Shown piece after piece: positions 9,642 through 41,227 of a stretch of DNA of 64,000 nucleotides (the stretch's first letter is position 1; each line of letters begins with the position of its first letter). The DNA is from an uncultured Christensenellaceae bacterium. Its GTDB lineage: Bacteria > Bacillota > Clostridia > Christensenellales > UMGS416. The stretch spans positions 2,632 through 66,631 of the forward strand of contig CALWDW010000006.1 of assembly GCA_944376795.1 (NCBI GenBank), given 5' to 3'. The position numbers and the translations under genes are program-made. The notes beneath the pieces are model-generated. The model had not been told where the DNA came from. It did no database searches and saw only the letters and a program-made list of their open reading frames with translations.

Positions 9642-9775
9642 AGCCTGTATCTCCTTGCAAAAAAGAATCGTGACGGTAGGATTCGCCCTTTTCCTGTAAA
9701 CTCCTGCCGGCCTGGACAAAACAAGGAAAACTTGTATAATAGAGAAGGCAATCCCCGTAATAGAAGGAGCGGCGC

Positions 9776-10676: not shown

Positions 10677-11459
10677 TTATCCCTGCGCATCCTCACAGAA
10701 AAAGCGCTGGGCATTGTCCCATGTGCATTGGGCCATCTCCTCCAGGGAGACCTGCCGCACATCGGCCAGGCACTGGGCCACCAGGCCGACCCGCAGGGGG
10801 CTGTTTCTCTTTCCCCGGAAGGGCACCGGAGAAAGATAGGGAGAATCGGTCTCAATGAGCAGCCGGTCCGCCGGGACATAGGCCGCCACCTCCCGGAGAT
10901 TGTGGGCGTTCTTGAAGGTTACCGAGCCGGAAAAGGAAATCATCATGCCCATATCCAGGCAGCGCCGAGCCGACTCTACGCTGCCCGTCCAGCAATGCAT
11001 ATTGGCCCGGTGGGGACGTGTCTCCCTCACCACGTCAAAGAAATCCCCCCACGCATCCCGGACATGGAAAATCACCGGTTTGCCGCACTGGTTCGCCAGG
11101 CTGATCTGCCGGGCCATGGCCTCCCGCTGGAGTGGGCGAGGCGCGTGGTCATAATAGTAATCCAGGCCGATCTCTCCCAGTGCCACGACACCGGGCTGCT
11201 CCAGTGCCTGGGCCAGTTCACGAAGTGCCGCATCATCCAAGGATGCGGCCTCATGGGGATGCACGCCCACCGCCGCAACCAGTTCCAATCCCGGGACATC
11301 CCGCAGGCGAAGCTCCAGCACCCGACGGGAACTCTCCATATCCGCTCCGCACAGCAGGACCTTGTGGACGTTCTGCCGGGGCATCTCGGCAAGCAACGCC
11401 TCCCGCTCTTCGTCAAAGACGGGATCATCCAAATGGGCGTGGGTATCAAAGAGCCGCAT
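10677..11459 (-). CDS. tatD: TatD family metal-dependent hydrolase (DNase)
   Basis: MRLFDTHAHLDD N-terminus with conserved His/Asp ladder. It lies immediately downstream of metG, and its start overlaps the metG stop (TGATG). This is the conserved metG-tatD/yabD arrangement. Confidence 0.88.
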   Translation of the reverse strand: MRLFDTHAHLDDPVFDEEREALLAEMPRQNVHKVLLCGADMESSRRVLELRLRDVPGLELVAAVGVHPHEAASLDDAALRELAQALEQPGVVALGEIGLDYYYDHAPRPLQREAMARQISLANQCGKPVIFHVRDAWGDFFDVVRETRPHRANMHCWTGSVESARRCLDMGMMISFSGSVTFKNAHNLREVAAYVPADRLLIETDSPYLSPVPFRGKRNSPLRVGLVAQCLADVRQVSLEEMAQCTWDNAQRFFCEDAQG

Positions 11460-13532: not shown

Positions 13533-14242
13533 GGATTTCCAGGCAATTTCACGGCGCCGTCACGGTACTCCGGGACAGTGTCCGTCACGCTGGGCTCCAT
13601 GCAAAATTGGACGTCATCCTCCATACCCAGCGCGATAAGCCGCTGGGTATGCCGGGTATGCCTGAGCAAGGGGATCGGATCCGTTTTGTGCTGTTCCCAG
13701 AGGATCCGCGCCGTCTGCCCCAGATCATCCGCCTCGGCCCCCATGGCCGCCAAAATAGCGCCGGCCGCCAGCACATCTTCCATGGAATAGCGTCCCGCCG
13801 TTCCTGCGCAGAGAAGGGTGACGGGCAGACCCGCCTCCAGCGCCCTCTGCGCCGTCGCCTGCGCATTGCGCATGCAGCCAATTAAAATGCGCGCCGCCCC
13901 AGAGGCTGCCAATATGGCCCGGGTACCATTGGTGGTGGTCATAACCAGCGTGCGCCCGCGCACCGCCTCTTCCGTAAACTCCAGCGGGCTGTTTCCCGCG
14001 TCAAATCCCGAGATACGCACAGCGCCCCGCTCACCGCAGAGAAGAACGGGTTCTTCAGCGGCCGCCCGCAGGGCCAGAGCTTCCTCTACCTCGGCCACTG
14101 GCAGAATTCTCTGCGCACCGTGCGCCAGGGCCGTTGTCATGCATGTCGTAGCCCGCAGGACATCCAACACCACGCAGCAGCGTCCCGCCATGGAATAGTC
14201 AACAGGGATCGCACCCGGGAACGCAAAGGTATCTACCACCAT
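13529..14242 (-). CDS. 2-phosphosulfolactate phosphatase (ComB) family protein
   Basis: VVLDVLRATT, GERGG-like CGERGAVRISGFDAGNSPLEF and TTTNGT motifs are characteristic of the ComB family. Confidence 0.78.
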   Translation of the reverse strand: MVVDTFAFPGAIPVDYSMAGRCCVVLDVLRATTCMTTALAHGAQRILPVAEVEEALALRAAAEEPVLLCGERGAVRISGFDAGNSPLEFTEEAVRGRTLVMTTTNGTRAILAASGAARILIGCMRNAQATAQRALEAGLPVTLLCAGTAGRYSMEDVLAAGAILAAMGAEADDLGQTARILWEQHKTDPIPLLRHTRHTQRLIALGMEDDVQFCMEPSVTDTVPEYRDGAVKLPGNP

Positions 14243-27871: not shown

Positions 27872-28093
27872 GTGAGGCACAATCAGGCCGAAGAGGGACC
27901 CGGATGGGTGCTGCACCTGGTCAATCCCAGCCCTGCCCCGGTGGTGGCACAGCTGGAATTCTTCCGTCCCCTGCATTCTGCCAGCTTTGTGACCTTCACG
28001 GAAGCCCCTCTGGACGCGCTGCCGGCCGACGGCTGCACCGTATGCGCAAAGCTCCCCCCCTACAGCCTACGCGCTGTGCGCGTGGAGCTATAA
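27872..28093 (+). pseudogene. 3'-terminal remnant of a glycoside hydrolase (GH38 alpha-mannosidase-like C-terminus)
   Basis: Only about 70 codons survive. EEGPGWVLHLVNPSPAPVVAQLEFF...LPPYSLRAVRVEL resembles the extreme C-terminal beta-sandwich of large GH38-type enzymes. No upstream coding sequence is present, and the divergent gene's promoter region begins about 145 nt away. Confidence 0.5.
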
Positions 28094-28445
28094 GACTTTC
28101 TTCCCTCCCGGGTCTCTGCCGCAAACGTGCAGAGGTATGGCTTCTCCCCGACCGGGCAATGCAAGGACGGAAAGCCTTGAAAAACCACACAAACTAAGCG
28201 CCCCGATTTCTCCGGCCAAGAGAGGGATCGGGGGGCCTTTTTCCGATCGGAGCGGGAACACTATCTGGTTTGGCACGCCTCCTGCAGCCGCGGAAGCAAA
28301 ATTCCATCAGTCCGGTTCTGCCGCAACCGACAGTCGATTTACAGTCTGCCATTTTCTTCCGTATGAAATGTATTCCCTAATCGCAATCTCCATCCTTATA
28401 ATAAAACATGGAAAAATCTATCAATTCATGATAGGAGGAATCAAT

Positions 28446-29072
28446 GTGAAGAAAATGTATGGTTACGCAAGGGTATCGGCCAAGGACCAATGTGAAGCCC
28501 GCCAGTTCCATGCGCTGCAGGAATTCGGCGTACCGGAACACACCATCTACCTTGACAAGTGCAGCGGAAAGGACTTCCAGCGTCCCCAGTATCTCCGGCT
28601 GCTCCAAAACCTTCAGCCCGGCGATGTACTGGTGGTCAAGTCCATCGACCGGCTTGGACGGAACTATGCCGAAATCCAAGAACAGTGGCGCATAATCACC
28701 AAAGTCAAAAAGGCCGACATCGTAGTGCTGGATATGCCGCTGCTGGACACCCGGCAAAAGTCCTCCGATCTGACGGGAACATTCATCGCGGACCTGGTGC
28801 TGCAAATTCTGTGCTACGTAGCCCATGTGGAGCGGGAAAACATCAAGCAGCGACAGGCCGAAGGCATTGCTGCGGCCAAGGCGCGTGGTGTGAAATTCGG
28901 CAGAAAAAAGATGCCCATCCCCGATGATTTTTACGCTCTTTGGGAAAAATACCAAAAAAAACAAATAACCGCGCGATCCGCAGCAAAAGAATTGAATATT
29001 GCCCACAGCACTTTCCTCAAATGGGGGAAGTCTACCGACGACTACCACAATATTTTGGGGTTTTCAATGTAG
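28446..29072 (+). CDS. small serine recombinase (resolvase/invertase family, Hin/Gin-like domain order)
   Basis: The N-terminal catalytic motif is MYGYARVSAKDQ (Y-x-R-V-S). VVKSIDRLGRN is present, as is a C-terminal HTH (ITARSAAKELNIAHSTFLKW). The likely start is GTG 28446, 7 nt after AGGAGG; the alternative is ATG 28455. About 208 aa. Confidence 0.88.
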   Translation: MKKMYGYARVSAKDQCEARQFHALQEFGVPEHTIYLDKCSGKDFQRPQYLRLLQNLQPGDVLVVKSIDRLGRNYAEIQEQWRIITKVKKADIVVLDMPLLDTRQKSSDLTGTFIADLVLQILCYVAHVERENIKQRQAEGIAAAKARGVKFGRKKMPIPDDFYALWEKYQKKQITARSAAKELNIAHSTFLKWGKSTDDYHNILGFSM

Positions 29073-29082
29073 ACTTTTGAAA
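29064..29082. repeat. left inverted repeat (IR-L) of the candidate invertible segment
   Basis: Sequence is tcAATGTAGACTTttgaaa. The core AATGTAGACTT occupies 29066-29076 and contains the recombinase stop codon TAG (29070-29072). The site has its own dyad, TTTCAA-N9-TTGAAA. Confidence 0.6.
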
Positions 29083-29098
29083 TCAACTGTGATAGAAT
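29070..29098 (+). promoter_or_regulatory. promoter-like element P1, currently facing the pilus operon
   Basis: TAGACT (29070-29075, inside the IR-L core), a 17-nt spacer, then an extended -10, TGaTAGAAT (29090-29098). Confidence 0.4.
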
Positions 29099-29130
29099 GT
29101 AAATATCATAATGTGTTTATTGTAGGTCCC

Positions 29131-29159
29131 ATTCTAAGCGCACAAAACATAAGGGTCAA
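29131..29159 (-). promoter_or_regulatory. promoter-like element P2 inside the segment, currently facing the recombinase gene
   Basis: On the minus strand this reads TTGACC (29159-29154), a 17-nt spacer, then TAGAAT (29136-29131). Confidence 0.55.
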
Positions 29160-29207
29160 ACGATTAACATTTTCCTATTAGTTGAATCATATGTGTAAGC
29201 AAGATGG

Positions 29208-29226
29208 TTTTAGAAGTCTACATTTA
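29208..29226. repeat. right inverted repeat (IR-R) of the candidate invertible segment
   Basis: Sequence is ttttagAAGTCTACATTta. The core at 29214-29224 is the exact reverse complement of the IR-L core. The extended match is 16 of 19. Confidence 0.6.
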
Positions 29227-29264
29227 ATACCATTTCCAACGTCAGCAAACCGGAGGACGCAGCC

Positions 29265-29756
29265 ATGACCGACCAGGAAATGAGAAAACTGAGCCGCCAA
29301 GATCTGCTGGAGCTGCTCCTGGCCCTGCGGCAGGAGCGCGATGCCCTACAGGAGGAATTGGAACAAACCAAAGCCGCCCTGCAGGACCGCATGCTCAAAA
29401 TTAATGAGGCCGGTTCCATCGCCGAAGCCACTTTGCGGCTGAGTGGCGTCTTTGAGGCGGCACAGTTTGCCGCAGAACAGTACCTTGTCAATATCCGCGC
29501 TCTCAGCGAAAGGCAGCGGGACATCTGCGCCCAAGAGGAGGCCAAAGCCCGCGCCATGATCGAGCAGCAGCTGAAAACTGCCGCCCAGACTGCCCAAAAA
29601 ATGGAAGAAACATCCCGGCAGAAGTGCCAGGCAATGGAGGCCGAGGCTAAGCAGCGCGCCGAAGCCTATTGGCAGGACGCCATCGCCCGCCTGCAGGATT
29701 TTTACAAGCAGTACACAGGGCTGAAGGAGCTCTTTAGCACGGGAGAACCCAAATGA
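29265..29756 (+). CDS. hypothetical coiled-coil protein, first gene of the pilus operon
   Basis: 163 aa. A GGAGG RBS precedes it. The sequence is rich in E/Q/A/L/R in a heptad-like pattern and has no signal peptide. Its stop overlaps the next start (ATGA). Confidence 0.7.
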   Translation: MTDQEMRKLSRQDLLELLLALRQERDALQEELEQTKAALQDRMLKINEAGSIAEATLRLSGVFEAAQFAAEQYLVNIRALSERQRDICAQEEAKARAMIEQQLKTAAQTAQKMEETSRQKCQAMEAEAKQRAEAYWQDAIARLQDFYKQYTGLKELFSTGEPK

Positions 29757-30355
29757 GCGTACGGCGCCCGCTCGATACCGGCACAGCCGACCTGATCCCC
29801 ACCGTAGAGCAGCTGGAAGCGGAGCTGCACCGGGAAATCCAGCGAAAGCGCTACGGCATCGTAACCCGCAGTACCCTTTTCACGCTGATCACGGTGGCAG
29901 CCGCCGCAATCCTCGTTGCCACGCTGTTCCTGCCCGTGCTGCGCATCTACGGCCTGTCCATGACGCCTACCGTCAGCGGGGGAGACATCGTAGTATCTCT
30001 CCGGGAGAGCACCTTCTCCCGCGGCGACATCATTGCCTTCTATTACAATAATAAGATCCTGGTGAAGCGTGTCATAGCCTTTCCCGGGGAATGGGTGGAT
30101 ATTGACACGGCGGGCAATGTAACCGTCGACGGCGATCCCTTGGATGAACCCTATGTGACGACGAAGGCCTTGGGGGACTGTGATATTGCCCTCCCCTACC
30201 AGGTGCCGGACGGAAGGCTCTTCGTCTTAGGTGATAATCGAATCATCTCCTCCGACAGCCGGGTCTCCGCAGTGGGCTGCATCGCGGAGGAGCAGATCGT
30301 GGGGAAGCTTGTCTTCCGCGTCTGGCCCCTGGGCCGTCTTGGCCCGTTGGAATGA
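29753..30355 (+). CDS. signal peptidase I (S26A), pilus-locus associated
   Basis: N-terminal TM anchor. Box B is YGLSMTPT (Ser nucleophile), box D is LVKRVIAFPGE (Lys general base), and box E is VLGDNRIISSDSR. Confidence 0.88.
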   Translation: MSVRRPLDTGTADLIPTVEQLEAELHREIQRKRYGIVTRSTLFTLITVAAAAILVATLFLPVLRIYGLSMTPTVSGGDIVVSLRESTFSRGDIIAFYYNNKILVKRVIAFPGEWVDIDTAGNVTVDGDPLDEPYVTTKALGDCDIALPYQVPDGRLFVLGDNRIISSDSRVSAVGCIAEEQIVGKLVFRVWPLGRLGPLE

Positions 30356-30379
30356 CATTAAGGATGGAGGGAAACGGCC

Positions 30380-33300
30380 ATGAAACGCGAACCGCTCCAA
30401 GATCAAGCCATGAAATCCATACGAGACCGCCAGCGCCATCGGTGGTGGAAGAAGATTGTCGCCGGCATGTCGGCAGTGGTGGTGTTTGTCACCTCCTATC
30501 TGCTCATTCTGCCTGCCATCACCATGGGGCGGCAGAATCCCTCCCTGGAGGCGACCAAGACCCTGGCGCTTCCGGGAGAGACGCTCACCGTAACAGCCTC
30601 CATCTTTCCCGAAGGCAGAGCGGATCAAGTTTACTATATCGCAGCCTACGGTGACAATGCCGGATTAACCGGCGTCTCCTTCCGGAATGATACCGCTTCG
30701 GTGGCTCTGGATGGGGGCGGGACCTTGACGCTGCATCGTGAAGTCATCTCCGGCGGGGTAGGCTATTGGTTTACCCTTCCGACCGGTGCAGGCACGTCCC
30801 AGCTTTCCCTGAACTGGATCAACGGAATCGGCGCGCTGCGAGAGATCGCCGTACCGGCCGAGACACCGGTCCCCTCCGAATCCCCGGTCGTCGAGACACC
30901 GGCCCCCTCCGAATCCCCGGTCATCGACACACCGGCGCCTTCCGAATCCCCGATCGTCGACACACCAGCCCCCTCCGAATCCCCGATCGTCGACACACCG
31001 GCGCCTTCCGAATCCCCGATCGTCGACACACCGGCGCCCTCCGAATCCCCGATCGTCGACACACCAGCCCCCTCCGAATCCCCGGTCGTCGTGACGCCGA
31101 CCCCCTCCGAATCCCCGGCCACAGCAACTCCTGCCATCGCAGAGGCCCCTTCCTTGGAGAGGCCTTCCGGCGGCGAGACAGCTTTCCTGGGCATGACCCT
31201 TTCCAATAGCCAAACCGCTGTTTCCCTCTCCGCGCTATCCGCCGCAGAAGCCTCCATTTCCGCCTCTTCTACCCCCGCAGACGACTCCACGCCTGCAGCG
31301 GCTGCCTCTCCTGCGCCCCTTCCCTCGGAGGAGTCTGACGCCCAGGATGCGGCGGTACAGTACATAGACCAGGCAGGGGATCCTGCCGCCCCGGGCAGTC
31401 TGACCCTCTCCGCCGGCAATGCTGGCACATTGGATGCGGCCAGGGTAGCGGCCACAGCCGGCAGCACGCTTACCCTGCGCTGGGATCCCGAAGCGGAAGC
31501 CCTGCCTACCGAAACCCCTGTTCCCGAGGATAACAAGGCCGAGGATCCTTCCATAGAAAAGGCCCTCACCATCCCGGAGGGGGTAAGCAGCTGGGCAGCC
31601 GCGTATAAGCCCCAGGCAACCCCAGAGCCTCTGGAAACCCAGGGACCCGCCGCCAACGGCGGCGCGCGCTCCGTCATGCTGCTCAGTGCCCGCAGCACGG
31701 GAATCGATCTGCGCAATTACCTCACGACGCTAACCGTTGAGCGAAAGGTAGGCGACCAGTGGCAGGAAGCAACCCAGCTCTATCATAACGATTCCATCCG
31801 GGTGACGCTGGCATACGAGCTGCCTAAGGGAGTCGCCACGGCTGCTAACCGCGTGTTTTTCTATCAGATCACCGGCGGCGTTATGCTCAACACAGTGGAA
31901 AGCGGACCCGTTCTGGATGGGGACGAAGAAGTAGGAACCTATACCATCTCTCAAGAGGGTCTTGTCACCATTACTTTTGATAATGTGTATGTGGAAGATG
32001 GCACAGAAGTCCATGGTTCCTTGCGCTTTGAAGGAATGGTCACGGCCACCGGAGAAGGAGAAGACGTTACAATCGACTTTGGCGGCTCAGGAACCACCAT
32101 TCCTGTGTTGCCCGATCCAAACAGTCAAGGCCTTTCCATCGTCAAATATGGAACCTTTTACCCGAAAGTTGGCAACATAGGCTATAGTATTATCATCTCC
32201 ACAGACGAAGGATCGGACGGCCCCATCACGGTCACCGACCAATTCCAGCACACGCCGGAGTACGGCGCCATTGCATATGACGAGAGAAGCTTCGTCATTC
32301 AGCATGGTACCTGGAAGGAAGAAACAGGGTCGTGGAGTATTGATCACAATCCAGTAACGGGTGGGAATATCCGCATCGAGCCGCAGGACGAAACCACCGC
32401 GGCTTCGTTTACCATCACCGGTCTGCCGGCGTTAGGACCAAACGAAGGTTACTTGATTACCTATACGGCTACGCCCACCCTTTCTGAGAGCGGAGACGCA
32501 TCGGGTTACACGGAGTTTAATAACCTTGCCACCGCGGCCGACACCACAAACAGCGTTACAGCCTCGGCCAAAATCAAAGTTTCCAATGCAAAAATCAGCA
32601 AAACCGGAACATATAACCCGCTGACCGGCACCATCGTATGGACGATCCTGATCAACCAGGACCGGCAGGATATCAGCAGAATGGTACTCAACGATGAGAT
32701 GGTCTATCTTGATGCCGAAGGAACCTCTGTGGATTTGCCTTTGCCAGACCAAGTCACCCTTACGCCCTATGACGCAAGCGGAAATCCGAAGGCCCCGCAG
32801 TCCATCTCCCTTCCCTATTCCTTCCCCGAAGGATCCACGGATGCCTATATGGTAACCTATGAGACCGCACTCCCCACACTCCCCGAGGGGACGCCGGTCA
32901 CCGTCATCAATCAGGCTTTCTTGGGCCGGTTTTTTGCGGAGGCCGAAGTCACAGGTGAAATACCTGGCGAGACCGGTTATGCTATCGTCAAATACCGAAC
33001 CAGCGCATCCATGGGTAGCGATGTATCCCAATTTAACTGGGAATCGGTCATCACCTATCCGAGCGATATTCAGACGGCAGACAGTCTAACCTACGTAGAC
33101 TGGATTGCCAATTTGTTCCCCAATATTGACGGATATCCCCCAATTGCAGGTACGCATCATACCACCAAGAGCCGCCTCCAGTCTACCCTCGCGGTTCTCA
33201 CCGCACAATATGTTCCTATTGATCCCAGCGGTTACTCGGTTTATGTAATCACCGAGGAAAATTTAAACAAGATTCTCCCTGTTGGGGTTCGTGATGACGC

Positions 33301-35476
33301 CACTACCATCGGTTGGTATCTATCCGGCGAATATGATAGTCTCGACTTTAATACTCTTGTGGATCCTCAATACTGGACGCCCATTGAGAGTGTAGCTGAC
33401 AACACCCCTCTCTCTATGTTCAAAATCGTATTCAACGATACGGGATTTGCCCAGCTGAAGGCCGCTGGTAACGGCGTGGTCATCCGCTACAGTACCCAGG
33501 TCGACATGGATGCTTGGAGAGCCGTTGAGGACAGCGAGGTTGTGATGGTGAATTTAGGTCGGTTTCCTTATGATTTTGCTAACACCTGGAACACTCTCAC
33601 TCTAGAGGAAAAGCTTAATAAGCAAACCAGTCCTACCGGCGCGGCTTTCACGGGAGACACCTGGGACGCAAATGGCCAGCTCTATACCTATGACACAACC
33701 TCCTACACCGACGGTGACCTCAGCCTCGCCTATCACGAGACGGACGGCCGGCTGCACTATCGCATTCTTCTGAATGGCATTTATTTAGTGGGAAAGGATG
33801 ATATCCAAATTACCGATCAACTTCCCGATGGCGCCACATTGGATCCGAATTCCATCCAGATCATGCAGCACCTTGCCACCAATCCTCAGATAGGCCGTGA
33901 ATGGGATAATAGTACAAAATGGTACCTAACATGGGACATGGATGAGAAAACAAATACTATAACTTTCACCTTCCAGCCCCGTGGATATGTCAGCGAATAC
34001 GATGACATCGGCATTTACTACGATGTCCTCATCGAGGAGACGCAGGGCGATCATACCTATACGAATAGCGCCGTGTGGGACGGCTCCTCGGACAATACCC
34101 ATACCACCGTCCGAGACGAGGAACCGGTACTGGATAAAACTAGCCAGATTTTAGAGGATTTATCCACCAACGGTCGTACCACGGTTCGGTATTATGTAGT
34201 TGTAAACCCCCGCGGGGAGGATCTGGTTCCTAATAACAACGCCATTACGCTGGAGGATGTTCTCACGGTGCCGGACGGCGTCTCGGCGGCCTTTGACCCC
34301 GTATCCGTCCATGTCTACGCCTATGCCGCCGACAAGCCGGATGATCACTACTGCGGAAGGGAACTGTCCGACTTTTTGACCGCTTACGACCAGGATACGT
34401 ATACCATCACCTTTACCCTGCCCGACAGCCGCGCCATGGTCGTGGTCTACGACTATATCATTGATCAAGGAAGCTACGCGACAGATTTTAATATTCTGAA
34501 CACGGCCAACCTGACAGGCTACACCTATGACGGTGCAGACTTCGAACTGCTTATCCAGTATCAGGACTCCAGCGCCACTGCCAACAAGGCAACGCTGACC
34601 GTCTATAAACACGCTGCCAACAGCATCACCAATCTCTTAGACGGAGCGAGCTTCTGTTTGGAACGATATGAGAAGCCAACCGACGGCAGCAGCAGCTACC
34701 AATGGGCCCGAACTTCTGTCACTGCAAATACTGACGGTCTCTTTACGATTGAGGATGGCTCCATCCCCCTAAGCTTTCTGGAGGAAACTTCCCTCTCCAA
34801 TACGCTGTACCGGCTGACGGAGGTCACACCGCCGACAGGATATGTGCTGGATGAAACACCCCACTACTTCGTGTGGCTGGGTTCTGCTACCGACACGGAG
34901 GATTCTGTCTATCAAACCATGGCTGCTGCAGGCGCAATCCCGGATGGCGTGACACAGGATGACATCCTGTTCATTCCCTTCTCCACTTCCGGAACCATGT
35001 ATATCTCCAATGAGCCTATTGAGCTTGTGGTACGCAAAGCCTGGCAGGACATGGATGACATTCCCATCGATCCGCCAGCCAACGTCTCCGGCGTAACAAT
35101 CCGGCTGTGGCAGTATGACAAAAATGATTCAACCTATAAGCAGCAATACGAAGAAGACGTCACACTTTCGGCCGAGAACAATTGGCGTTACGCCTGGACC
35201 CTGCCTAAAGCAGACGAGGGTGGTACGCGCGCGTATTACTACAAGGTGGAGGAATTGGATGTACCCGGCGGCTACATCGTCTCCTATTCCCCCAGCAACG
35301 AAGCGCAGATAACCAGCGGAGAGATCGCCGTATTCAATCACAAGGTCGACTTTGTCCTCCCAGAGACCGGTGGGTACAACGGTCCGCTGTGGTATACCGT
35401 CGGCGGGCTCAGCCTGGTCATTCTCGCAGGGCTTTTCCGCAAAAGACTGCGCCGCCGGGAAACCCGTACTCCCTAA
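30380..35476 (+). CDS. 1698-aa LPXTG-anchored surface protein, putative pilus tip adhesin with isopeptide/CnaB-type domains
   Basis: N-terminal signal/TM region (WWKKIVAGMSAVVVFVTSYLLILPAITMG). Eight copies of a TPAPSESPIVD repeat. An E-box-like YRLTEVTPPTGYVLD. A C-terminal CnaB-like VVRKAWQD...YYYKVEELDVPGGYIVSY. The sorting signal is LPETGG followed by a hydrophobic stretch and RKRLRRRE. Confidence 0.88.
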   Translation: MKREPLQDQAMKSIRDRQRHRWWKKIVAGMSAVVVFVTSYLLILPAITMGRQNPSLEATKTLALPGETLTVTASIFPEGRADQVYYIAAYGDNAGLTGVSFRNDTASVALDGGGTLTLHREVISGGVGYWFTLPTGAGTSQLSLNWINGIGALREIAVPAETPVPSESPVVETPAPSESPVIDTPAPSESPIVDTPAPSESPIVDTPAPSESPIVDTPAPSESPIVDTPAPSESPVVVTPTPSESPATATPAIAEAPSLERPSGGETAFLGMTLSNSQTAVSLSALSAAEASISASSTPADDSTPAAAASPAPLPSEESDAQDAAVQYIDQAGDPAAPGSLTLSAGNAGTLDAARVAATAGSTLTLRWDPEAEALPTETPVPEDNKAEDPSIEKALTIPEGVSSWAAAYKPQATPEPLETQGPAANGGARSVMLLSARSTGIDLRNYLTTLTVERKVGDQWQEATQLYHNDSIRVTLAYELPKGVATAANRVFFYQITGGVMLNTVESGPVLDGDEEVGTYTISQEGLVTITFDNVYVEDGTEVHGSLRFEGMVTATGEGEDVTIDFGGSGTTIPVLPDPNSQGLSIVKYGTFYPKVGNIGYSIIISTDEGSDGPITVTDQFQHTPEYGAIAYDERSFVIQHGTWKEETGSWSIDHNPVTGGNIRIEPQDETTAASFTITGLPALGPNEGYLITYTATPTLSESGDASGYTEFNNLATAADTTNSVTASAKIKVSNAKISKTGTYNPLTGTIVWTILINQDRQDISRMVLNDEMVYLDAEGTSVDLPLPDQVTLTPYDASGNPKAPQSISLPYSFPEGSTDAYMVTYETALPTLPEGTPVTVINQAFLGRFFAEAEVTGEIPGETGYAIVKYRTSASMGSDVSQFNWESVITYPSDIQTADSLTYVDWIANLFPNIDGYPPIAGTHHTTKSRLQSTLAVLTAQYVPIDPSGYSVYVITEENLNKILPVGVRDDATTIGWYLSGEYDSLDFNTLVDPQYWTPIESVADNTPLSMFKIVFNDTGFAQLKAAGNGVVIRYSTQVDMDAWRAVEDSEVVMVNLGRFPYDFANTWNTLTLEEKLNKQTSPTGAAFTGDTWDANGQLYTYDTTSYTDGDLSLAYHETDGRLHYRILLNGIYLVGKDDIQITDQLPDGATLDPNSIQIMQHLATNPQIGREWDNSTKWYLTWDMDEKTNTITFTFQPRGYVSEYDDIGIYYDVLIEETQGDHTYTNSAVWDGSSDNTHTTVRDEEPVLDKTSQILEDLSTNGRTTVRYYVVVNPRGEDLVPNNNAITLEDVLTVPDGVSAAFDPVSVHVYAYAADKPDDHYCGRELSDFLTAYDQDTYTITFTLPDSRAMVVVYDYIIDQGSYATDFNILNTANLTGYTYDGADFELLIQYQDSSATANKATLTVYKHAANSITNLLDGASFCLERYEKPTDGSSSYQWARTSVTANTDGLFTIEDGSIPLSFLEETSLSNTLYRLTEVTPPTGYVLDETPHYFVWLGSATDTEDSVYQTMAAAGAIPDGVTQDDILFIPFSTSGTMYISNEPIELVVRKAWQDMDDIPIDPPANVSGVTIRLWQYDKNDSTYKQQYEEDVTLSAENNWRYAWTLPKADEGGTRAYYYKVEELDVPGGYIVSYSPSNEAQITSGEIAVFNHKVDFVLPETGGYNGPLWYTVGGLSLVILAGLFRKRLRRRETRTP
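30863..31126 (+). repeat. 33-nt coding tandem repeat, 8 copies (TPAPSESP[IV]VD)
   Basis: Direct reading gives near-identical 33-nt units. The central four are almost perfect and the outer copies diverge. Confidence 0.9.
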
Positions 35477-35554
35477 AGATCCAGGACGGCATCCGTCCTG
35501 CCAAACGATAGACGTCCCTGCAATAAAGAACCGCCAAGAAAGGAGCAACAATCC

Positions 35555-37246
35555 ATGAAGAATCTCACAAAGAGATGCCTCATCGTCCTGCTGGCCGTAA
35601 CCCTGCTGGCCGTGTTCTCCATTCCGGCCCTGGCCGCGGGAGACAACACCATCACCATCCAGAAAACAACCGCAGGCTATACGTACAAGGCCTACCAAGT
35701 ATTCGCCGGCGAGGTAGCAGAAGACGGTGGGAATACAATTCTGACCAACATCGACTGGGGCAGTGGCGTGGACGGTTCAGCGCTTCTTACCGCCCTGCAA
35801 GGTGACGGAACCGTGGGCAGCAGCTTTGCCGACTGCACCACCGCAGCAGACGTAGCCAATGCCCTGGACGACTTCTCTAGCGATAACCTGAAAATCGTCG
35901 CGGAGCTGATCGCAGCGAACCTTACTACGGTTGCCGTCACCAGCACCTACAACACCACCAACTACACCATCAGCGGTCTGGATTCCGGCTATTATTTCAT
36001 CCAGAGCACCCTCGTTCCCGAAACAGGGACCCATACCGAGTACATGCTCAAAGTGGTCAAGTCCATTACTGTGACACCGAAAGACAGCGACATCCCCGGT
36101 GTAGAGAAAAAGGTCCTGGAAGATGACAAATATACCGATAACGGTGGGTATGGCGCCGGTTACAATGATGTGGCCGACTACGACATTGGCGATACCGTGC
36201 CCTTCAAGCTCATCGGAACCATACCGAACATGGCTGCTTACGAGACCTACGCCTATACCTTCCATGATACCATGTCTGCCGGCCTCACGCTGGACGAGAG
36301 CAGTATCCAAGTCTACCTGACGACTGCCAAGGAAGCAACTCTTGACACGCCGCTGACCGCAGACGGCAACTATACCGTGACAACCTCCGGCCTAGATGAT
36401 GGCTGCAGCTTTGAGGTCGCCTTTACGGACTTGAAAACCGTACCCGGCATCGGCGCCAACCGGTATGTCATCGTTACCTTCAACGCGACGCTGAATGAAA
36501 ATGCCGACATTGGTCTGGACGGCAACCCCAATACAGTCTACCTGACCTTCTCGAACAATCCGTACGATGACAGCACGGGGAAAACCCCCGACGACAAGGC
36601 GATCGTCTTCACCTACCAGCTGAACACCACCAAGGTCGACGGCGAAGATCAGACACCGCTGCCCAATGCCCAGTTTGTACTCTTCAACGAGGAAAAGACG
36701 GCTGTCGCTCGGATTGATGCTGCAGGAAAAGTCGATGGTTGGATTCCGCTTACCACAATCCAGGCCGGAGCCACCGCAGCAACCATTACGGCCGAGCAGC
36801 TGCAGGGGTACACTCCCGCAGGGGGAGGATCCATCATTCTCACGTCGGCAGAGACAGAGACCATAGGCCTCTTCACCGTAACAGGCCTGGACGATGATGT
36901 CTACTATCTCCGCGAGATCGCAGCGCCTGCCCTCTATAACCCGCTGGAGGACGACGTGAAAGTCGAAATTAATGCGACCACGAACAACGGACAGACATGG
37001 GTAGATTTCAGCGCCGCCTCGGCTTTGACCGCGCTGGAGGTTAAGGTAAATGACGGCGCAGGAGCAGCCGGAACGCTTAATACCGGCGCTGTGGCCATCA
37101 ACGTGGAAAACAATAAGGGCAATACGCTGCCGGAGACCGGCGGCATAGGTACCACGCTGTTCTATGTCATTGGCGGTACGCTGGCCGTAAGCGCCGGCAT
37201 CCTGCTGGTGATTCGCAAGCGCACACGCTTCGAGCATCATTCGTAA
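35555..37246 (+). CDS. LPXTG-anchored major (backbone) pilin, SpaA/SpaH-type
   Basis: Signal peptide ending IPALA-AGD. N-terminal TITIQKTTAGYTYKAYQVFAG. A pilin-motif-like SITVTPKD (Lys176, nt 36080-36082). E-box YYLREIAAPALYNP. The sorting signal is LPETGG plus a hydrophobic tail and RKRTR. Confidence 0.85.
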   Translation: MKNLTKRCLIVLLAVTLLAVFSIPALAAGDNTITIQKTTAGYTYKAYQVFAGEVAEDGGNTILTNIDWGSGVDGSALLTALQGDGTVGSSFADCTTAADVANALDDFSSDNLKIVAELIAANLTTVAVTSTYNTTNYTISGLDSGYYFIQSTLVPETGTHTEYMLKVVKSITVTPKDSDIPGVEKKVLEDDKYTDNGGYGAGYNDVADYDIGDTVPFKLIGTIPNMAAYETYAYTFHDTMSAGLTLDESSIQVYLTTAKEATLDTPLTADGNYTVTTSGLDDGCSFEVAFTDLKTVPGIGANRYVIVTFNATLNENADIGLDGNPNTVYLTFSNNPYDDSTGKTPDDKAIVFTYQLNTTKVDGEDQTPLPNAQFVLFNEEKTAVARIDAAGKVDGWIPLTTIQAGATAATITAEQLQGYTPAGGGSIILTSAETETIGLFTVTGLDDDVYYLREIAAPALYNPLEDDVKVEINATTNNGQTWVDFSAASALTALEVKVNDGAGAAGTLNTGAVAINVENNKGNTLPETGGIGTTLFYVIGGTLAVSAGILLVIRKRTRFEHHS

Positions 37247-37270
37247 CCGCAACGACGCATTCCTCCACAC

Positions 37271-37302
37271 CCCCGGAGGGAAAAAGGCCCTCCCCTCCGG
37301 GG
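37271..37302 (+). terminator. intercistronic GC-rich hairpin after the major pilin gene (possible partial terminator or RNA stabiliser)
   Basis: 10-bp stem ccccggaggg / ccctccgggg. No T-run follows it. Confidence 0.4.
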
Positions 37303-37327
37303 AAATGTGTGACAAGGAGAGTTCTGT

Positions 37328-38176
37328 ATGAAGAGGAAAAAAGCAACCCTCGCCCTGGTATTGGTATTCCTAACAGGGCTGGCTCTGCTGCTGTATCCCC
37401 TGGTCAACGACTTCTGGAACTCCCTGCATCAGTCCCGTGCCATAGCCAACTATACCCAGGCCGTGGCAGAGATTGATAATGACCACTACCGGCAGCTTTG
37501 GTCAGACGCCCAGACGTACAACGTCGCGCTGGTAGAGAATGACCGCCGCTATACCCCCACCTCGGAAGAGACCGCCCTGTATGAGAGTCTGCTGGACATT
37601 ACGGAAACGGGGATTATGGGGTATATTGAAATTCCCTCCATTCAGGTATCACTTCCCATTTACCACGGCGTCGACGAGGCGGTGCTGCAGACGGCCATAG
37701 GACATATTGAGGGAACGTCTCTCCCCGTGGGCGGAGAGAGTACCCACTGTGTAATCTCGGGACATCGTGGGCTCCCCTCCGCCAAACTATTCACCGACTT
37801 GGATCAACTGGAGGAGGGCGATACCTTCCTGCTGCGGGTGCTGGATGAGACGCTGACCTATGAGGTGGATCAGATTCATATCGTTGAGCCCTATGAGATT
37901 GACCGGCTGGAAATAGAGGAAGGTGAGGACTTATGCACACTGGTAACCTGTACGCCCTACGGCGTCAATTCCCACAGGCTCTTGGTAAGAGGGCATCGGG
38001 TCGCCTCCTCGACTCCGGCACTATCCGTCCGCGTTACAGCAGATGCTCTGCAGATGAATACCCTCCTGGTGGCCACGGCCGTCGCGGCGCCGGTGCTGCT
38101 GATTCTTCTGATTTCCGTACTGCTATGGCCCTCGGGCCGGAAAAAGCGCACGCACAGCGTGCTATCGCGCAAGTGA
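37328..38176 (+). CDS. srtC: class C (pilin-polymerising) sortase
   Basis: N-terminal TM region, the lid region and GHRG. The active site is TLVTCTPYGVNSHRLLVRGHRV. It has the C-terminal hydrophobic anchor typical of class C sortases. Confidence 0.88.
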   Translation: MKRKKATLALVLVFLTGLALLLYPLVNDFWNSLHQSRAIANYTQAVAEIDNDHYRQLWSDAQTYNVALVENDRRYTPTSEETALYESLLDITETGIMGYIEIPSIQVSLPIYHGVDEAVLQTAIGHIEGTSLPVGGESTHCVISGHRGLPSAKLFTDLDQLEEGDTFLLRVLDETLTYEVDQIHIVEPYEIDRLEIEEGEDLCTLVTCTPYGVNSHRLLVRGHRVASSTPALSVRVTADALQMNTLLVATAVAAPVLLILLISVLLWPSGRKKRTHSVLSRK

Positions 38177-38187
38177 GGTGACAAGTT

Positions 38188-39255
38188 ATGGGTGTACGAC
38201 AGTCCTGGAGCAGGTTCACGGCAGTTTTGCTGTCGGTGATCCTCTTGTCGCTCCTGCTGGCGATTCCCGTCCGGGCTGCCGGGCAGATTGATCCTGCCCG
38301 CCAAGGTTCCCTGACCGTGCATTTCGGTCAAGAGGATACGGGCTTCCCGGATGTGACATTCCGGCTGTATTATGTGGCCAGCATCTCTTCCGATGCAGCG
38401 TTGACACTTGCCGGCGACTTCTCCGCATACCCGGTAACCTTCGACGGCCTCAGTACGTCGGAATGGAGAGCTTTGGCCCAGACCTTAGCCGGCTATGCCG
38501 CACGAGACGACCTGCCTCCCCTGCAAACGGCCCAAACCAATGCGGACGGTGACGCCTCCTTCCCGCTGCTGCCCACAGGCCTCTACCTGGTTGTGGGAGA
38601 CACTTACAGCAGCGGCCCGGATACCTATACCCCGGAAGCCTTTCTGGTCAGCCTGCCCAATGCAGATGAGACGACCGGCGATTGGGTCTATGACGTCACG
38701 GCCCACTGCAAATATGATGTCCGTCACGACGAGCCCCAAACCGTTAGCCGGCAGGTCATCAAGCTCTGGGATGATGCCGATGCTGCGGAGCATCGTCCTG
38801 CGCAGATTGTTGTGCAGCTCCTGCGGGACGGGCAAGTGTATGATACCGTAACGCTCGACAAAGGGAATGACTGGCAGTATACCTGGACGGAGCTGGATGC
38901 CGGTTCGCATTGGCAGGTTACCGAATATGATACGCCGGAAGGATACTCCGTCCTGGTCAGCCAAGAGGGCGCCGTCTTTATCATGACCAACCGCTACCAC
39001 GAGGATGTGCCGACTCCGTCGCCTTCCCCCTCCCCAACCCCGTCTGCGCCCACGCCCTCGCCATCCCCTACTTTCTCCACGGCCGCCCCCTCTCCCAGCC
39101 CCACTTCTACCCCCATTCCCACCCCTACGGCTACGGGGAAACCTCCAATCCTTCCGCAAACCGGTATGCTCTGGTGGCCGGTACCTGTTCTGGCGTGCGG
39201 TGGTATGCTGCTTTTCCTCATCGGGTGGATTCAGCGGCGGAAGCATGATGCGTAG
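38188..39255 (+). CDS. LPXTG-anchored minor/basal pilin with a CnaB-type domain
   Basis: Signal peptide. CnaB-like QVIKLWDD...IVVQLLRDGQVYDTVTLDKGNDWQYTWTELD...WQVTEYDTPEGYSV. A P/S/T-rich stalk. The sorting signal is LPQTGM plus a hydrophobic tail and RRKHDA. Confidence 0.82.
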   Translation: MGVRQSWSRFTAVLLSVILLSLLLAIPVRAAGQIDPARQGSLTVHFGQEDTGFPDVTFRLYYVASISSDAALTLAGDFSAYPVTFDGLSTSEWRALAQTLAGYAARDDLPPLQTAQTNADGDASFPLLPTGLYLVVGDTYSSGPDTYTPEAFLVSLPNADETTGDWVYDVTAHCKYDVRHDEPQTVSRQVIKLWDDADAAEHRPAQIVVQLLRDGQVYDTVTLDKGNDWQYTWTELDAGSHWQVTEYDTPEGYSVLVSQEGAVFIMTNRYHEDVPTPSPSPSPTPSAPTPSPSPTFSTAAPSPSPTSTPIPTPTATGKPPILPQTGMLWWPVPVLACGGMLLFLIGWIQRRKHDA

Positions 39256-39976
39256 CGCCGGAAAGAAGCCCGGGGCCTGGCTGATGGCCTGCGGCCTGGC
39301 GCTTTTAGCGGCAGCGCTGCTTTTAACCGGTTACAACCTTTGGGATGAGCGGCGCGCCCAGGAATCCACCGATCACATCCTGGCCGAGCTGCGCAGCCGT
39401 ACCCAGCCGCTGGCCACGCTGCCGTCACCCGTACCGTCTCCTTCGCCAGCACCGTCTCCTCCCCCCTCTTCATCGCCTGCCGCACGTCCCGTTATCTCCG
39501 ACACAGCCACAGCCGCCGTCACGCTTGCGACCACCGCTTCCCCTACGCCGTCCCCTACGCCGACGCCCGCGCAGAAGATGCCCGCCGTGGAGGTCGAGGG
39601 AAACCAGTACATTGGCACACTGGACATTCCCTCGCTGCGGCTTTCCCTGCCGATCATGGAGAGTTGGAGTTATCCAAAGCTTCGCCGGGCTCCCTGCCGT
39701 TATGCCGGATCTGTCTATACGAATGATTTGGTTATTGCGGGGCACAATTACCGGGCGCATTTTGGTACGCTCAAGCAGCTTTCCGCAGGCGCTTCCGTAG
39801 TCTTCACCGATATGGCGGGAAACCAATTCCATTACAACGTCGCAGAGATTCAAGTGCTGGAGCCAACGGCAGTAGAAAACATGCTTGCAGGGGGCTGGCC
39901 ACTCACACTGTTTACCTGCACCTATGGCGGCCAAACGCGGCTGGCTGTGCGGTGCGTATCCGCAGACGGAAACTGA
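39245..39976 (+). CDS. second sortase (TLFTC active site; class not resolvable by eye)
   Basis: Starts MMRSAGKKPGAWLMACGLALLAAALLL (N-terminal anchor), followed by a P/S-rich linker, VIAGHNY and the catalytic TLFTCTYGGQTRLAVR. It overlaps the minor pilin gene by 11 nt and has no C-terminal anchor. Confidence 0.8.
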   Translation: MMRSAGKKPGAWLMACGLALLAAALLLTGYNLWDERRAQESTDHILAELRSRTQPLATLPSPVPSPSPAPSPPPSSSPAARPVISDTATAAVTLATTASPTPSPTPTPAQKMPAVEVEGNQYIGTLDIPSLRLSLPIMESWSYPKLRRAPCRYAGSVYTNDLVIAGHNYRAHFGTLKQLSAGASVVFTDMAGNQFHYNVAEIQVLEPTAVENMLAGGWPLTLFTCTYGGQTRLAVRCVSADGN

Positions 39977-39998
39977 TCTTGGCAAATCCATTCTCCAA

Positions 39999-40045
39999 GG
40001 GCCCCTCGGATCAAACAAAACGGTTTGATCCGAGGGGCCCTTTTC
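39999..40045 (+). terminator. rho-independent terminator ending the pilus operon
   Basis: 18-bp stem gggcccctcggatcaaac / gtttgatccgaggggccc followed by ttttcgg. Confidence 0.85.
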
Positions 40046-40381
40046 GGCATTCTTCCTTTCTCGGAAACGGCGCTCGTCATCCGCAAAAAAACAGCGGCGC
40101 CCGCAATATTGTTTCGGATTCAGGGAAGATGGGCTCTCTCTTCTCTTCCTCCCAGCGGCCCGCCCTTTATCCGGAAGGTTTGGGTTTGAGCATGGGCATG
40201 CCTTGGCGCCGTAGTCAAAAGAAAATCCCCGCTCAGCCGGAAAGACTGAGCGAGGCAATGCAGCATACATAAAACTAAGGCAAGAAATGCGTACAGGGCG
40301 CAAAACGGAATTGCACAGATTCAGCAGCGGCTCTGCATGCCTGTTGTACTTCGCATACAAGAAGCCGGCATTGAGCGAAAC

Positions 40382-40603
40382 TCATTCTGCGGCGCAGTCT
40401 GCTCCGATCACATTTTCTTTCGCCAGGATGCCCATGCCGAATTCTGTAAGGAGTTTGATATCTGCCTGCAAGGTCTTTCGTGTGGATTCGATGCCGTTTT
40501 GCTGTAGGTACTCCCCGATATCCTTTAAGGCAAGCGGGTGTTCCTCATCAGTCTTATCCCACAGATATTGCACGGTGAGAAGGAAACGCCTTTGGCTATT
40601 CAT
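40382..40603 (-). CDS. short HTH protein resembling the N-terminal domain of WYL-type regulators (probably truncated)
   Basis: 73 aa. LLTVQYLWDKTDEEHPLALKDIGEYLQQNGIESTRKTLQADIKLL matches the HTH_11-type N-terminus of WYL regulators, but no WYL domain follows. A GGAGGCAAAA RBS is present. Confidence 0.5.
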   Translation of the reverse strand: MNSQRRFLLTVQYLWDKTDEEHPLALKDIGEYLQQNGIESTRKTLQADIKLLTEFGMGILAKENVIGADCAAE

Positions 40604-40622
40604 TTTTGCCTCCGTCTATGGA

Positions 40623-40889
40623 TCAAACAGGGCGGCAGCAGGCGGGCCCGTCCGTGTGCTGCCGCATGCTCGGCCTGCCGGTTTTTTGCTCCTGCATGCC
40701 GCCAGCAGCAAACATCCGGGCAGCCGTCTCCGTCATCTTCCTGGGCTTTGCGGCGTGTCCACGGTCCATGTCCCTCCAGCCGGAGAACCGCAGCATCAAA
40801 GCCTCCGCCCTTCCCCCCATATGGCCGCAGGCATAACGCCGGCTGAACCGCAATGCCCCAGCCTCGGCCTTCGCATCCTCTATTTTCAC
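40623..40889 (-). CDS. hypothetical protein (weak call)
   Basis: 88-aa ORF whose ATG overlaps the upstream stop (ATGA). The composition is R/A/G-rich and no motif was recognised. It could be a GC-driven artefact. Confidence 0.25.
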   Translation of the reverse strand: MKIEDAKAEAGALRFSRRYACGHMGGRAEALMLRFSGWRDMDRGHAAKPRKMTETAARMFAAGGMQEQKTGRPSMRQHTDGPACCRPV

Positions 40890-41227
40890 ATTGGGACGCT
40901 TTGGGGAAGCTCGATCCGTGCCGATAACTCCAACTTATTTTCCAGCCGCTGCTCCACGGAGTCTGCCAGATAGTCGACGGCACGAAGCTCGCCCTGCTCG
41001 GAAAGCCCCTGGCAGGGGGCGCTCATCTGCACCGTCAGGAGAGTCACCGGCGGCTCTTCGGACACCGACAATACAAATCCGCTCCTATTTCCATAAACGG
41101 TTACCTGGGCGGCGATACATCCATTTCCCGCTTTGTCATATTCGCTTTCTTCCGAATCCAGAATATCATACACCGCATACAGCACAAGCTGCTTGGTATA
41201 CGGCAGAATCCGCTGAACCGATTTCAT
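40886..41227 (-). CDS. hypothetical protein
   Basis: 113 aa. A strong AAAGGAGG RBS lies 8 nt before the ATG. No motif was recognised. Confidence 0.5.
   Translation of the reverse strand: MKSVQRILPYTKQLVLYAVYDILDSEESEYDKAGNGCIAAQVTVYGNRSGFVLSVSEEPPVTLLTVQMSAPCQGLSEQGELRAVDYLADSVEQRLENKLELSARIELPQSVPM

Follow-up and report, generated by a model that had tools for sequence, protein, structure and literature searches.

The closest known system to the locus described here is the SZO08550/SZO08560 switch of Streptococcus equi subsp. zooepidemicus, in which a 115-bp invertible promoter bordered by GTAGACTTTA and TAAAGTCTAC is located between the recombinase SZO08550 and the gene of an LPXTG surface protein, and in which the promoter, when inverted, gives rise to reverse-strand recombinase transcripts (Holden et al. 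2009, PMC2654543). The locus under study lies in a stretch of 64 kb from an uncultured gut Clostridia bacterium (contig CALWDW010000006.1; the whole stretch is termed the window in the following) and comprises the gene of a small serine recombinase, a short segment bordered by inverted repeats and an operon for a sortase-assembled pilus. The streptococcal recombinase was reportedly named PinR later, by Steward et al. in 2015 (Microbiology 161:1105), and this name is used for the streptococcal switch below. In Gram-positive gut bacteria, pili that depend on sortases rank among the major adhesins and immune targets, and their control in uncultured Clostridia is essentially unknown.

The phase-variable pili of Gram-positive bacteria that are known to us depend on slippage or on bistable regulators. 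In Bifidobacterium breve, for instance, sortase-dependent pili are turned ON and OFF by replication slippage in a poly-G tract (PMC9187656). In a literature search of incomplete coverage, no account of an invertible promoter in front of a sortase-pilus operon came to light, nor any in Clostridia, and the resulting evidence of novelty is weak. The present locus is read here, with a probability of roughly 0.85, as an inverton in which the adjacent serine recombinase re-orients predicted promoters in front of the sortase-pilus operon. As such it adds a new example to a known switch type, the PinR-type serine-recombinase inverton, with a complete sortase-pilus operon as new cargo, and it is unsurprising in principle to specialists, since gut bacteria commonly carry invertons next to surface genes. 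Any metagenome allows the orientation of the segment to be scored, which would make the pilus expression state measurable in cohort data, and the 26-bp site together with the compact recombinase module provides potential synthetic-biology parts for Gram-positive anaerobes.

Inversion of the segment in public assemblies

Precise and recurrent inversion of the segment occurs in nature. The orientation was tallied for the window and for 14 contigs from different samples which encode the identical recombinase or the identical first operon protein. Seven of these 15 sequences carry the segment as in the window (the window itself, L002, L003, L060, L175, L176 and L177) and eight carry it flipped (L001, L059, L061, L062, L063, L174, L178 and L179). 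In L001 (ENA ERZ24773329) the flanks are 99.9% identical to the window and positions 29077-29213 are exactly reverse-complemented. Any choice of inverted interval between the outer limits 29066-29224 and the inner limits 29077-29213 reproduces the sequence of this contig, which locates the exchange within the 11-bp core of the bordering repeats.

Two strain lineages are distinguished by single-nucleotide polymorphisms (SNPs) at 29114, 29115, 29127 and 29181 as well as by differing genes upstream of 27880, and each of the two lineages is found with both orientations. Contigs with zero to two differences over kilobases differ solely by the inversion. The invertible segment proposed in the first-pass annotation is thereby borne out, the eight flipped sequences and the seven oriented as in the window having near-identical flanks and coming from two lineages. 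In the second lineage (L059-L061) homology to the window begins only at 27880 and extends rightwards across a small open reading frame (ORF), a terminator, the recombinase gene, the switch and the operon. Upstream of this position a GH38 alpha-mannosidase gene replaces the Lyx-isomerase-like gene, and the left boundary of the module at 27880 thus falls together with a rearrangement or insertion point.

An exact search of the GTDB representative genomes for the predicted flipped junction gave no matches, and neither did a degenerate junction pattern in the JGI metagenomes, in which the organism is not represented. Two contigs break at or inside the switch, namely L167, which ends there at 3640, and L178, which starts there; mixed orientations within one sample would cause such breaks, which are no proof of them.

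The linkage of recombinase, switch and pilus genes extends to other species. The five close relatives that were compared share 70-78% identity with the recombinase and are all encoded directly upstream of operons for S26 peptidases, sortases and pilins or adhesins, and in all five loci the sites are kept at the recombinase stop codon. The neighborhoods of these loci are unrelated to each other and include arginine biosynthesis genes, glmS, a xanthine permease gene and a prophage lysis module. In one of the relatives, P0081 (76% identical), the switch is itself polymorphic at a ratio of 3:5, with the inversion being exact between the site centers; this recombinase occurs in 1965 blocks of the public-assembly collection. 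A comparison of orthologous loci had been put forward in the first pass as a possible refutation of the switch; instead, five of five orthologs retain the repeats and one group occurs in both orientations. As judged from gene order in six species, the clade-wide linkage to pilus operons suggests a general rule and not a curiosity, and the recombinase clade appears to be dedicated to sortase-pilus operons. In one of the orthologous loci, L155 (3001-3678, recombinase P0039), the ORF runs through the left site and ends ~47 nt inside the segment, with the consequence that the last ~15 recombinase residues would change with orientation.

Recombination sites, recombinase and predicted promoters

The segment is bordered by a perfect 11-bp inverted repeat, which is present where the first-pass annotation had placed it (Table 1) and can be extended to 24 complementary bases out of 30 (29059-29088 versus 29202-29231); such a match around a perfect core of 11 bp is in keeping with the inverted repeats of an inverton. 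The TTTCAA-N9-TTGAAA dyad that had been described for the left repeat is found as well, being part of a larger pseudo-dyad site with 12-2-12 architecture. Across 12 sites from six species the consensus reads GGTTTTAAAAGT-AG-ACTTTTAAAACC, a perfect dyad with an asymmetric center, in which the half-sites are 12 bp each and carry GGTTTT and AAAACC at their outer ends. AGACTT is invariant among the aligned sites and the AG center is present in all 12. Small serine recombinases bind such a dyad as dimers and cleave at its center with a 2-bp stagger, and the observed 12-2-12 architecture is predicted by this established behavior. The left and right sites of the window (IRL and IRR) thus consist of dyad half-sites around a 2-bp center that is identical in both partners, with the exchange mapped to the core surrounding it. 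The recombinase stop codon, TAG at 29070-29072, was read within the left core, as had been noted before; since the perfect 11-bp identity surrounds the center, inversion leaves this stop codon unchanged.

The significance of the repeats depends on what is counted. Counted as bare 11-mers, inverted pairs at a spacing of 30-500 bp number 8 in the window and 10 ± 3 in shuffled sequences, and the earlier caution that such a repeat is to be expected by chance holds to this extent. The extended repeat is a different matter: inverted pairs matching in at least 24 of 30 positions at the same spacing occur once in 64 kb, this being the switch repeat, and not at all in 15 shuffles. In addition, a position matrix was derived from the 10 sites of the five other species only, with the window sites left out, and scanned across the 64 kb. 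The sites of the window scored 28.5 and 29.5 bits and the next unrelated match 13.4 bits. With the extended repeat and the site matrix both significant, the case can no longer be called contextual and not statistical, as it had been. The same scan revealed no second site pair in the 64-kb window and hence no sign of a multi-locus regulon there. The seven other 11-bp pairs within 500 bp, in number as by chance, include those at 1852-2062, 3664-3902, 9739-10215, 10766-11201, 12425-12552 and 13805-14107. A partial third copy of the core is located in the coding region of the recombinase, 31 nt before the IRL core and oriented as IRR, with a rough chance expectation of ~0.003 for the 9-mer; a similar extra site-like copy is located 35 nt upstream of the left repeat in locus L011.

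The recombinase gene starts at a GTG codon, 7 nt after an AGGAGG motif, and the gene callers agree on this start in L001-L003. Ser11 (YARVS), the DRLGR motif and the C-terminal helix-turn-helix are all intact, and full-length alignments that include the nucleophile serine were obtained with Sin/Bin3 (2r0q, 2e-24) and the gamma-delta resolvase. Because the catalytic Ser11 and DRLGR align with those of Sin and the gamma-delta resolvase, the enzyme looks active. The first-pass annotation had described it as a Hin/Gin-like small serine recombinase. The class assignment stands, the catalytic domain (PF00239, 1e-28) containing the nucleophile serine and the C-terminal helix-turn-helix being aligned to those of Sin and gamma-delta; the kinship with Hin/Gin is not supported by the ranking of sequence matches, as Sin/Bin3 and the gamma-delta/Tn3 resolvases rank at 2e-24 to 7e-20 and Gin at 1e-11. 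Membership of the Mpi family (NCBIfam NF009949) was rejected as well, the recombinase scoring 49.8 bits versus a cut-off of 272. From its sequence, the enzyme is probably a small serine recombinase which serves as an invertase and belongs to neither Hin/Gin nor Mpi. A PADLOC search gave no defense-system match for the recombinase. The protein search for its relatives covers the best 120 of at least 8000 matches, and relatives in GTDB are at most 63% identical. On the left flank a terminator-like hairpin (Table 1) would end the upstream small ORF and insulate the recombinase gene.

A consensus scan found both promoter-like elements at the positions given in the first pass. These elements, P1 and P2 (Table 1), are the only sigma-70-like matches in 28100-29500. 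The first operon gene starts with the ATG at 29265, 40 nt beyond the end of the right core, as had been noted and as the sequence reads, and no promoter-like element is present between IRR and this ATG. In the window P2 faces the pilus operon, with a predicted start near 29105 and a leader of ~160 nt, and P1 reads into the 3' end of the recombinase gene; after inversion P1 points into the operon, where its leader would be ~98 nt long. Both elements are mirrored in the flipped contig L001, in which P1 is on the plus strand. P1 and P2 are convergent with predicted starts ~20 nt apart, so close that the RNA polymerase footprints of the two would overlap.

For comparison, the six orthologous segments were oriented by the end bearing the -10 element and then aligned. 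The sole invariant interior columns across the six species are T..TA.AAT, at a distance of exactly 17 nt from the preceding (T/C)AGACT of the core, and (T/C)AGACT-N17-TAnAAT is present at exactly one end in six of six segments. P1 is confined to the window lineage and has no conserved counterpart in the other five species; its hexamers are unaffected by the lineage-B SNPs. Since no interior block apart from its -10 is invariant in all six species, P2 is predicted to be the family promoter, its -35 being part of the recombinase site. The first-pass annotation had ranked TAGACT-N17-TGaTAGAAT as the weaker element, a ranking which conservation overturns by marking it as the family promoter and TTGACC-N17-TAGAAT as lineage-only. 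In the window and L140 the end of the segment with the P2 -10 adjoins IRL, with P2 pointing toward the operon; in L148, L155, L160 and L166, which represent the groups with a single orientation, this end adjoins IRR and P2 points antisense into the recombinase gene. An Rfam scan of 28000-30000 gave no riboswitch or leader RNA, with a chance-level match only.

Table 1. Features of the switch locus and the pilus operon, in window coordinates.
Feature	Coordinates	Strand	Basis or remark
Terminator-like hairpin GCGCCCCGATTTCTC / GAGGGATCGGGGGGC with T run	28198..28241	+	inverted-repeat scan and sequence reading
Small serine recombinase gene, 208 aa	28446..29072	+	PF00239, E = 1e-28; presumed invertase
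Partial third core copy GAAGTCTAC in recombinase coding region	29027..29035	.	without outer half-sites GGTTTT/AAAACC
Left recombination site IRL, 26 bp, 12-2-12, GGTTTTCAATGT-AG-ACTTTTGAAATC	29059..29084	.	six-switch site model; 28.5 bits
IRL perfect 11-bp core AATGTAGACTT	29066..29076	.	presumed 2-bp crossover center AG, 29071-29072
P2: -35 TAGACT (in crossover core), 17-nt spacer, extended -10 TGaTAGAAT	29070..29098	+	9/12 plus TG
Invertible segment between crossover centers	29073..29217	.	147 bp center to center, ~31% G+C
P1: TTGACC-N17-TAGAAT	29131..29159	-	consensus scan, 10/12
Right recombination site IRR, 26 bp, reverse complement GGTATTAAATGT-AG-ACTTCTAAAACC	29206..29231	.	six-switch site model; 29.5 bits
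IRR perfect 11-bp core AAGTCTACATT	29214..29224	.	center CT, 29218-29219
Ribosome-binding site GGAGG and ATG (29265) of first operon gene	29252..29267	+	
First operon gene, 163-aa coiled-coil protein	29265..29756	+	family unassigned
Type I signal peptidase (S26)	29753..30355	+	PF10502, 4e-31; TIGR02227, 1e-32
1698-aa LPXTG adhesin, presumed pilus tip	30380..35476	+	Cna_B, SpaA-fold and collagen-binding-like domains
Backbone pilin	35555..37246	+	GramPos_pilinBB, SpaA fold, LPXTG anchor (Gram_pos_anchor)
Sortase, pilin polymerase type	37328..38176	+	PF04203, 2e-26
Minor pilin	38188..39255	+	pilin D1 and Cna_B, LPQTG sorting signal
Second sortase	39245..39976	+	PF04203, 4e-15

Proposed mechanism and competing explanations

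In the proposed mechanism recombinase dimers would bind both 26-bp sites and subsequently synapse; cleavage at the central dinucleotides 29071-72 and 29218-19 and strand exchange would then reverse the segment, leaving the flanks and the recombinase stop codon unaltered. P2 would always fire inward, cross the segment and leave it by the far end. It would thus exit via IRR into the seven-gene operon in the window orientation (ON), and via IRL, antisense into the recombinase gene, in the flipped orientation. In the latter orientation the convergent P1 would face the operon, making two expression levels possible rather than a strict ON/OFF, and in the window lineage P1 may keep the operon expressed even when the segment is flipped. 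Given active promoters, phase variation of the pilus would be the outcome, and the most likely role of the switch is to turn on or adjust the production of adhesive pili. The re-orienting of promoters at the pilus operon by the neighboring recombinase, which was the core of the original proposal, is upheld by the exact inversion and by five species that keep the linkage of recombinase, pilus genes and repeats.

A number of observations weigh against this mechanism. Four of the relative groups (21 assemblies) show a single orientation, with P2 always facing the recombinase, which fits populations that are mostly OFF but also switches that flip rarely or never. A segment of 147 bp leaves little length for a loop joining the sites, and no accessory factor or enhancer was identified. 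On hexamers alone P1 outscores P2 (10 versus 9 of 12). Each orientation points one promoter-like element at the operon, leaving no evident clean OFF state, and consensus scans of both orientations found nothing like a terminator within the segment that could stop read-through from the co-directional recombinase gene. Finally, switching within one population is deduced from polymorphism between samples, and catalysis of the inversion by the adjacent recombinase is presumed from linkage and site architecture.

With respect to polarity, the assignment of the window orientation as the (P2-)ON state is favored only slightly. The converse, with P1 as the operon promoter, the window OFF or low, the flipped form ON or high, and P2 a minor promoter or one antisense to the recombinase, is a less probable assignment that nonetheless deserves attention. 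P1 possesses the better hexamers (10/12) and the shorter leader (~98 nt), 10 of 13 distant relatives in their assembled orientation point the strongest promoter-like element at the recombinase, as references that are mostly OFF would, and reverse-strand recombinase transcripts have been measured from the inverted S. zooepidemicus promoter (Holden et al., PMC2654543). It is, however, difficult to reconcile with the absence of P1 from the five orthologous pilus switches and with the P2 -10, which is invariant in 6/6. Moreover, the better hexamers of P1 may lose weight, as in sigma-A promoters an extended -10 (TGn) is able to compensate for a weak -35. A different target altogether, the operon being transcribed independently and the inversion mainly regulating the recombinase itself (via the antisense promoter or site occupancy) or some other gene, is improbable. 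In either orientation one promoter-like element does run antisense into the recombinase gene, and the -35 of P2 overlaps the predicted recombinase-binding site; against this stand the lack of any other promoter-like element in 28100-29500, including the 40-nt gap between IRR and the ATG, from which the operon could be transcribed, and the adjacency of switch and pilus genes in six species with differing neighborhoods, which argues for the operon as the cargo.

Ongoing enzymatic switching would be dispensable if the two orientations were an old fixed inversion polymorphism of strains, caused for example by rare homologous recombination, and their origin from different samples would agree with that. 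Such a history is very improbable given that near-identical contigs, as described above, differ by the inversion alone, and that both states occur in two lineages, in another species and in a distant relative, which would call for many independent events. The perfect repeat of 11 bp is furthermore a poor substrate for homologous recombination, and the breakpoints are always at the center of conserved recombinase-type sites. Least probable of all is that the flipped contigs are assembly artifacts. While assemblers can be confused by inverted repeats, and contigs such as L167 and L178 do break at the switch, the k-mers of MEGAHIT (k87, k141) or SPAdes-style assemblies, as inferred from contig names, far exceed the 11-bp core, so that a flipped path requires real reads across each junction; in addition, eight independent assemblies contain identical, exact junctions. 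The inverton with its adjacent recombinase and pilus cargo is the preferred reading.

Pilus operon, distant relatives and known switches

The pilus operon consists of seven convincing genes (29265-39976) and combines an LPXTG backbone pilin and a pilin-type sortase with accessory and tip pilins, as is typical of a sortase-pilus operon. Eight genes had been counted in the first-pass annotation; the ORFs following the second sortase gene (106 aa and 228 aa; 39952-40973) have no family matches and implausible translations, and as they look non-coding the number is reduced to seven. A terminator-like hairpin is located at 40030-40047, after the stop codon of the second sortase gene. The mechanical ORF of this sortase extends from 39005, with ATG 39245 being the likely start (MMRSAGKK followed by a transmembrane segment). 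The 163-aa protein encoded by the first gene has no significant match in Pfam, NCBIfam, PADLOC or the PDB and is apparently cytoplasmic; the gene of a counterpart is also the first after the switch in L148 and L166 (163 aa) and in L160 (214 aa). Within the adhesin gene, 30859-31120 contains tandem-like internal repeats, with BLAST of related contigs giving offset self-matches at a periodicity of ~33-66 nt.

Beyond the close relatives, 131 more distant recombinase loci (33-64% identity) were compared. Repeat pairs with a GT-NN-AC center are present beside the recombinase in 19 of these 131 loci, and only two such pairs are found in 591 kb of other flanking sequence. In one distant relative a segment of 168 bp is flipped between L033 and L087. 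The cargo genes next to these recombinases are diverse, comprising GGDEF-EAL proteins, Eco57I/MmeI-type methylases, a capsule locus with a NusG-like gene and Wzz, a Listeria-Bacteroides-repeat surface protein, a VWA pilin-like protein, PD-(D/E)XK nucleases, radical-SAM/PqqD and zinc-ribbon proteins, and an isochorismatase with a permease. Short segments bounded by repeats precede varied cargo in L011, L025, L072, L033, L034, L088, L016, L018, L032 and L058; two of these loci, L018 (Guopingia tenuis NSJ-63) and L058 ('Clostridiales bacterium SIT11'), belong to cultured bacteria and are candidate switches only, since their repeat pairs are weaker (17-18 of 20-24 positions match) and both fail the strict GT-NN-AC-centered screen. 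A further segment, L035:4610-4753, has perfect 20-bp repeats TCAAAAGGTGTACCTTTTGA and contains TTGACA-17-TATTAT (+) and TTGACA-16-TATAAT (-) back-to-back with one symmetric -10 in common, thus resembling a bidirectional promoter inside an inverton.

These loci allow the tentative proposal, rated as less likely than not, of a portable cassette that is widespread in gut Firmicutes and consists of a small serine recombinase and an invertible promoter of 90-190 bp with GT-NN-AC 26-bp sites, the -35 being built into the crossover site. One clade would have settled on sortase-pilus operons and others on restriction-modification methylases, PD-(D/E)XK nucleases, GGDEF-EAL proteins, capsule loci and surface proteins. 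If this were true, recombinase binding would be coupled directly to promoter occupancy. Furthermore, the linkage of small serine recombinases to defense islands, which has been reported without explanation (PMC13552941), would be accounted for by phase-variable promoters and not by mobility functions.

Among the known switches the present locus shares with the Hin/hix system of Salmonella (fljBA) and with Gin, Cin and Pin the use of a small serine recombinase and of 26-bp inverted sites with 12-bp half-sites and a 2-bp asymmetric center, and would share with Hin also the phase variation of a surface organelle by an invertible promoter. In contrast to the present locus, in which the recombinase gene lies outside the 147-bp segment, hin is located inside a segment of ~1 kb which contains a Fis-bound enhancer, and GGTTTT is positioned here at the outer end of the half-site, not next to the center. 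Firmicutes, as far as we are aware, do not possess Fis. The Mpi recombinase of the gut commensal Bacteroides fragilis, likewise a serine recombinase, flips promoter-only segments of ~200 bp upstream of operons for surface structures (capsules), but acts in trans on many loci, whereas here one recombinase accompanies one adjacent switch in 64 kb. Phase variation of type 1 pili in E. coli similarly involves inversion of a short promoter segment, fimS, next to its recombinase genes; FimB and FimE are, however, tyrosine recombinases, the repeats are 9 bp long, IHF and Lrp are required as cofactors and the pili are of the Gram-negative chaperone-usher type. Within the Clostridia, the RecV switches of Clostridioides difficile (cwpV, flgB, cmrRST, pdcB) are short invertible regulatory segments upstream of surface and motility genes as well, but are served by one tyrosine recombinase that is encoded elsewhere and acts on many sites, and some of them act after transcription initiation. 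The sortase-dependent pili of B. breve would match in being phase-variable pili of a gut commensal, with slippage there and DNA inversion here.

The PinR switch resembles the present locus in repeats, layout and cargo, these being the basis of the comparison and not the recombinase protein. The repeat core GTAGACTTT is common to the S. zooepidemicus switch and the present site family; L148 and L058 carry GTAGACTTTA exactly, and the window has GTAGACTTTT in IRL and GTAGACTTCT in IRR. In both systems the recombinase gene is directly beside a short invertible segment, a promoter of 115 bp there and a predicted promoter segment of 147 bp here, and the cargo is sortase-anchored, an LPXTG surface protein in the one case and an LPXTG adhesin and pilins together with two sortases in the other. 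The differences concern the host, a streptococcus there and an uncultured gut Clostridia bacterium here, and the extent of the cargo, the single LPXTG protein with Listeria-Bacteroides repeats of S. zooepidemicus contrasting with a seven-gene pilus operon that includes its own sortases and signal peptidase.

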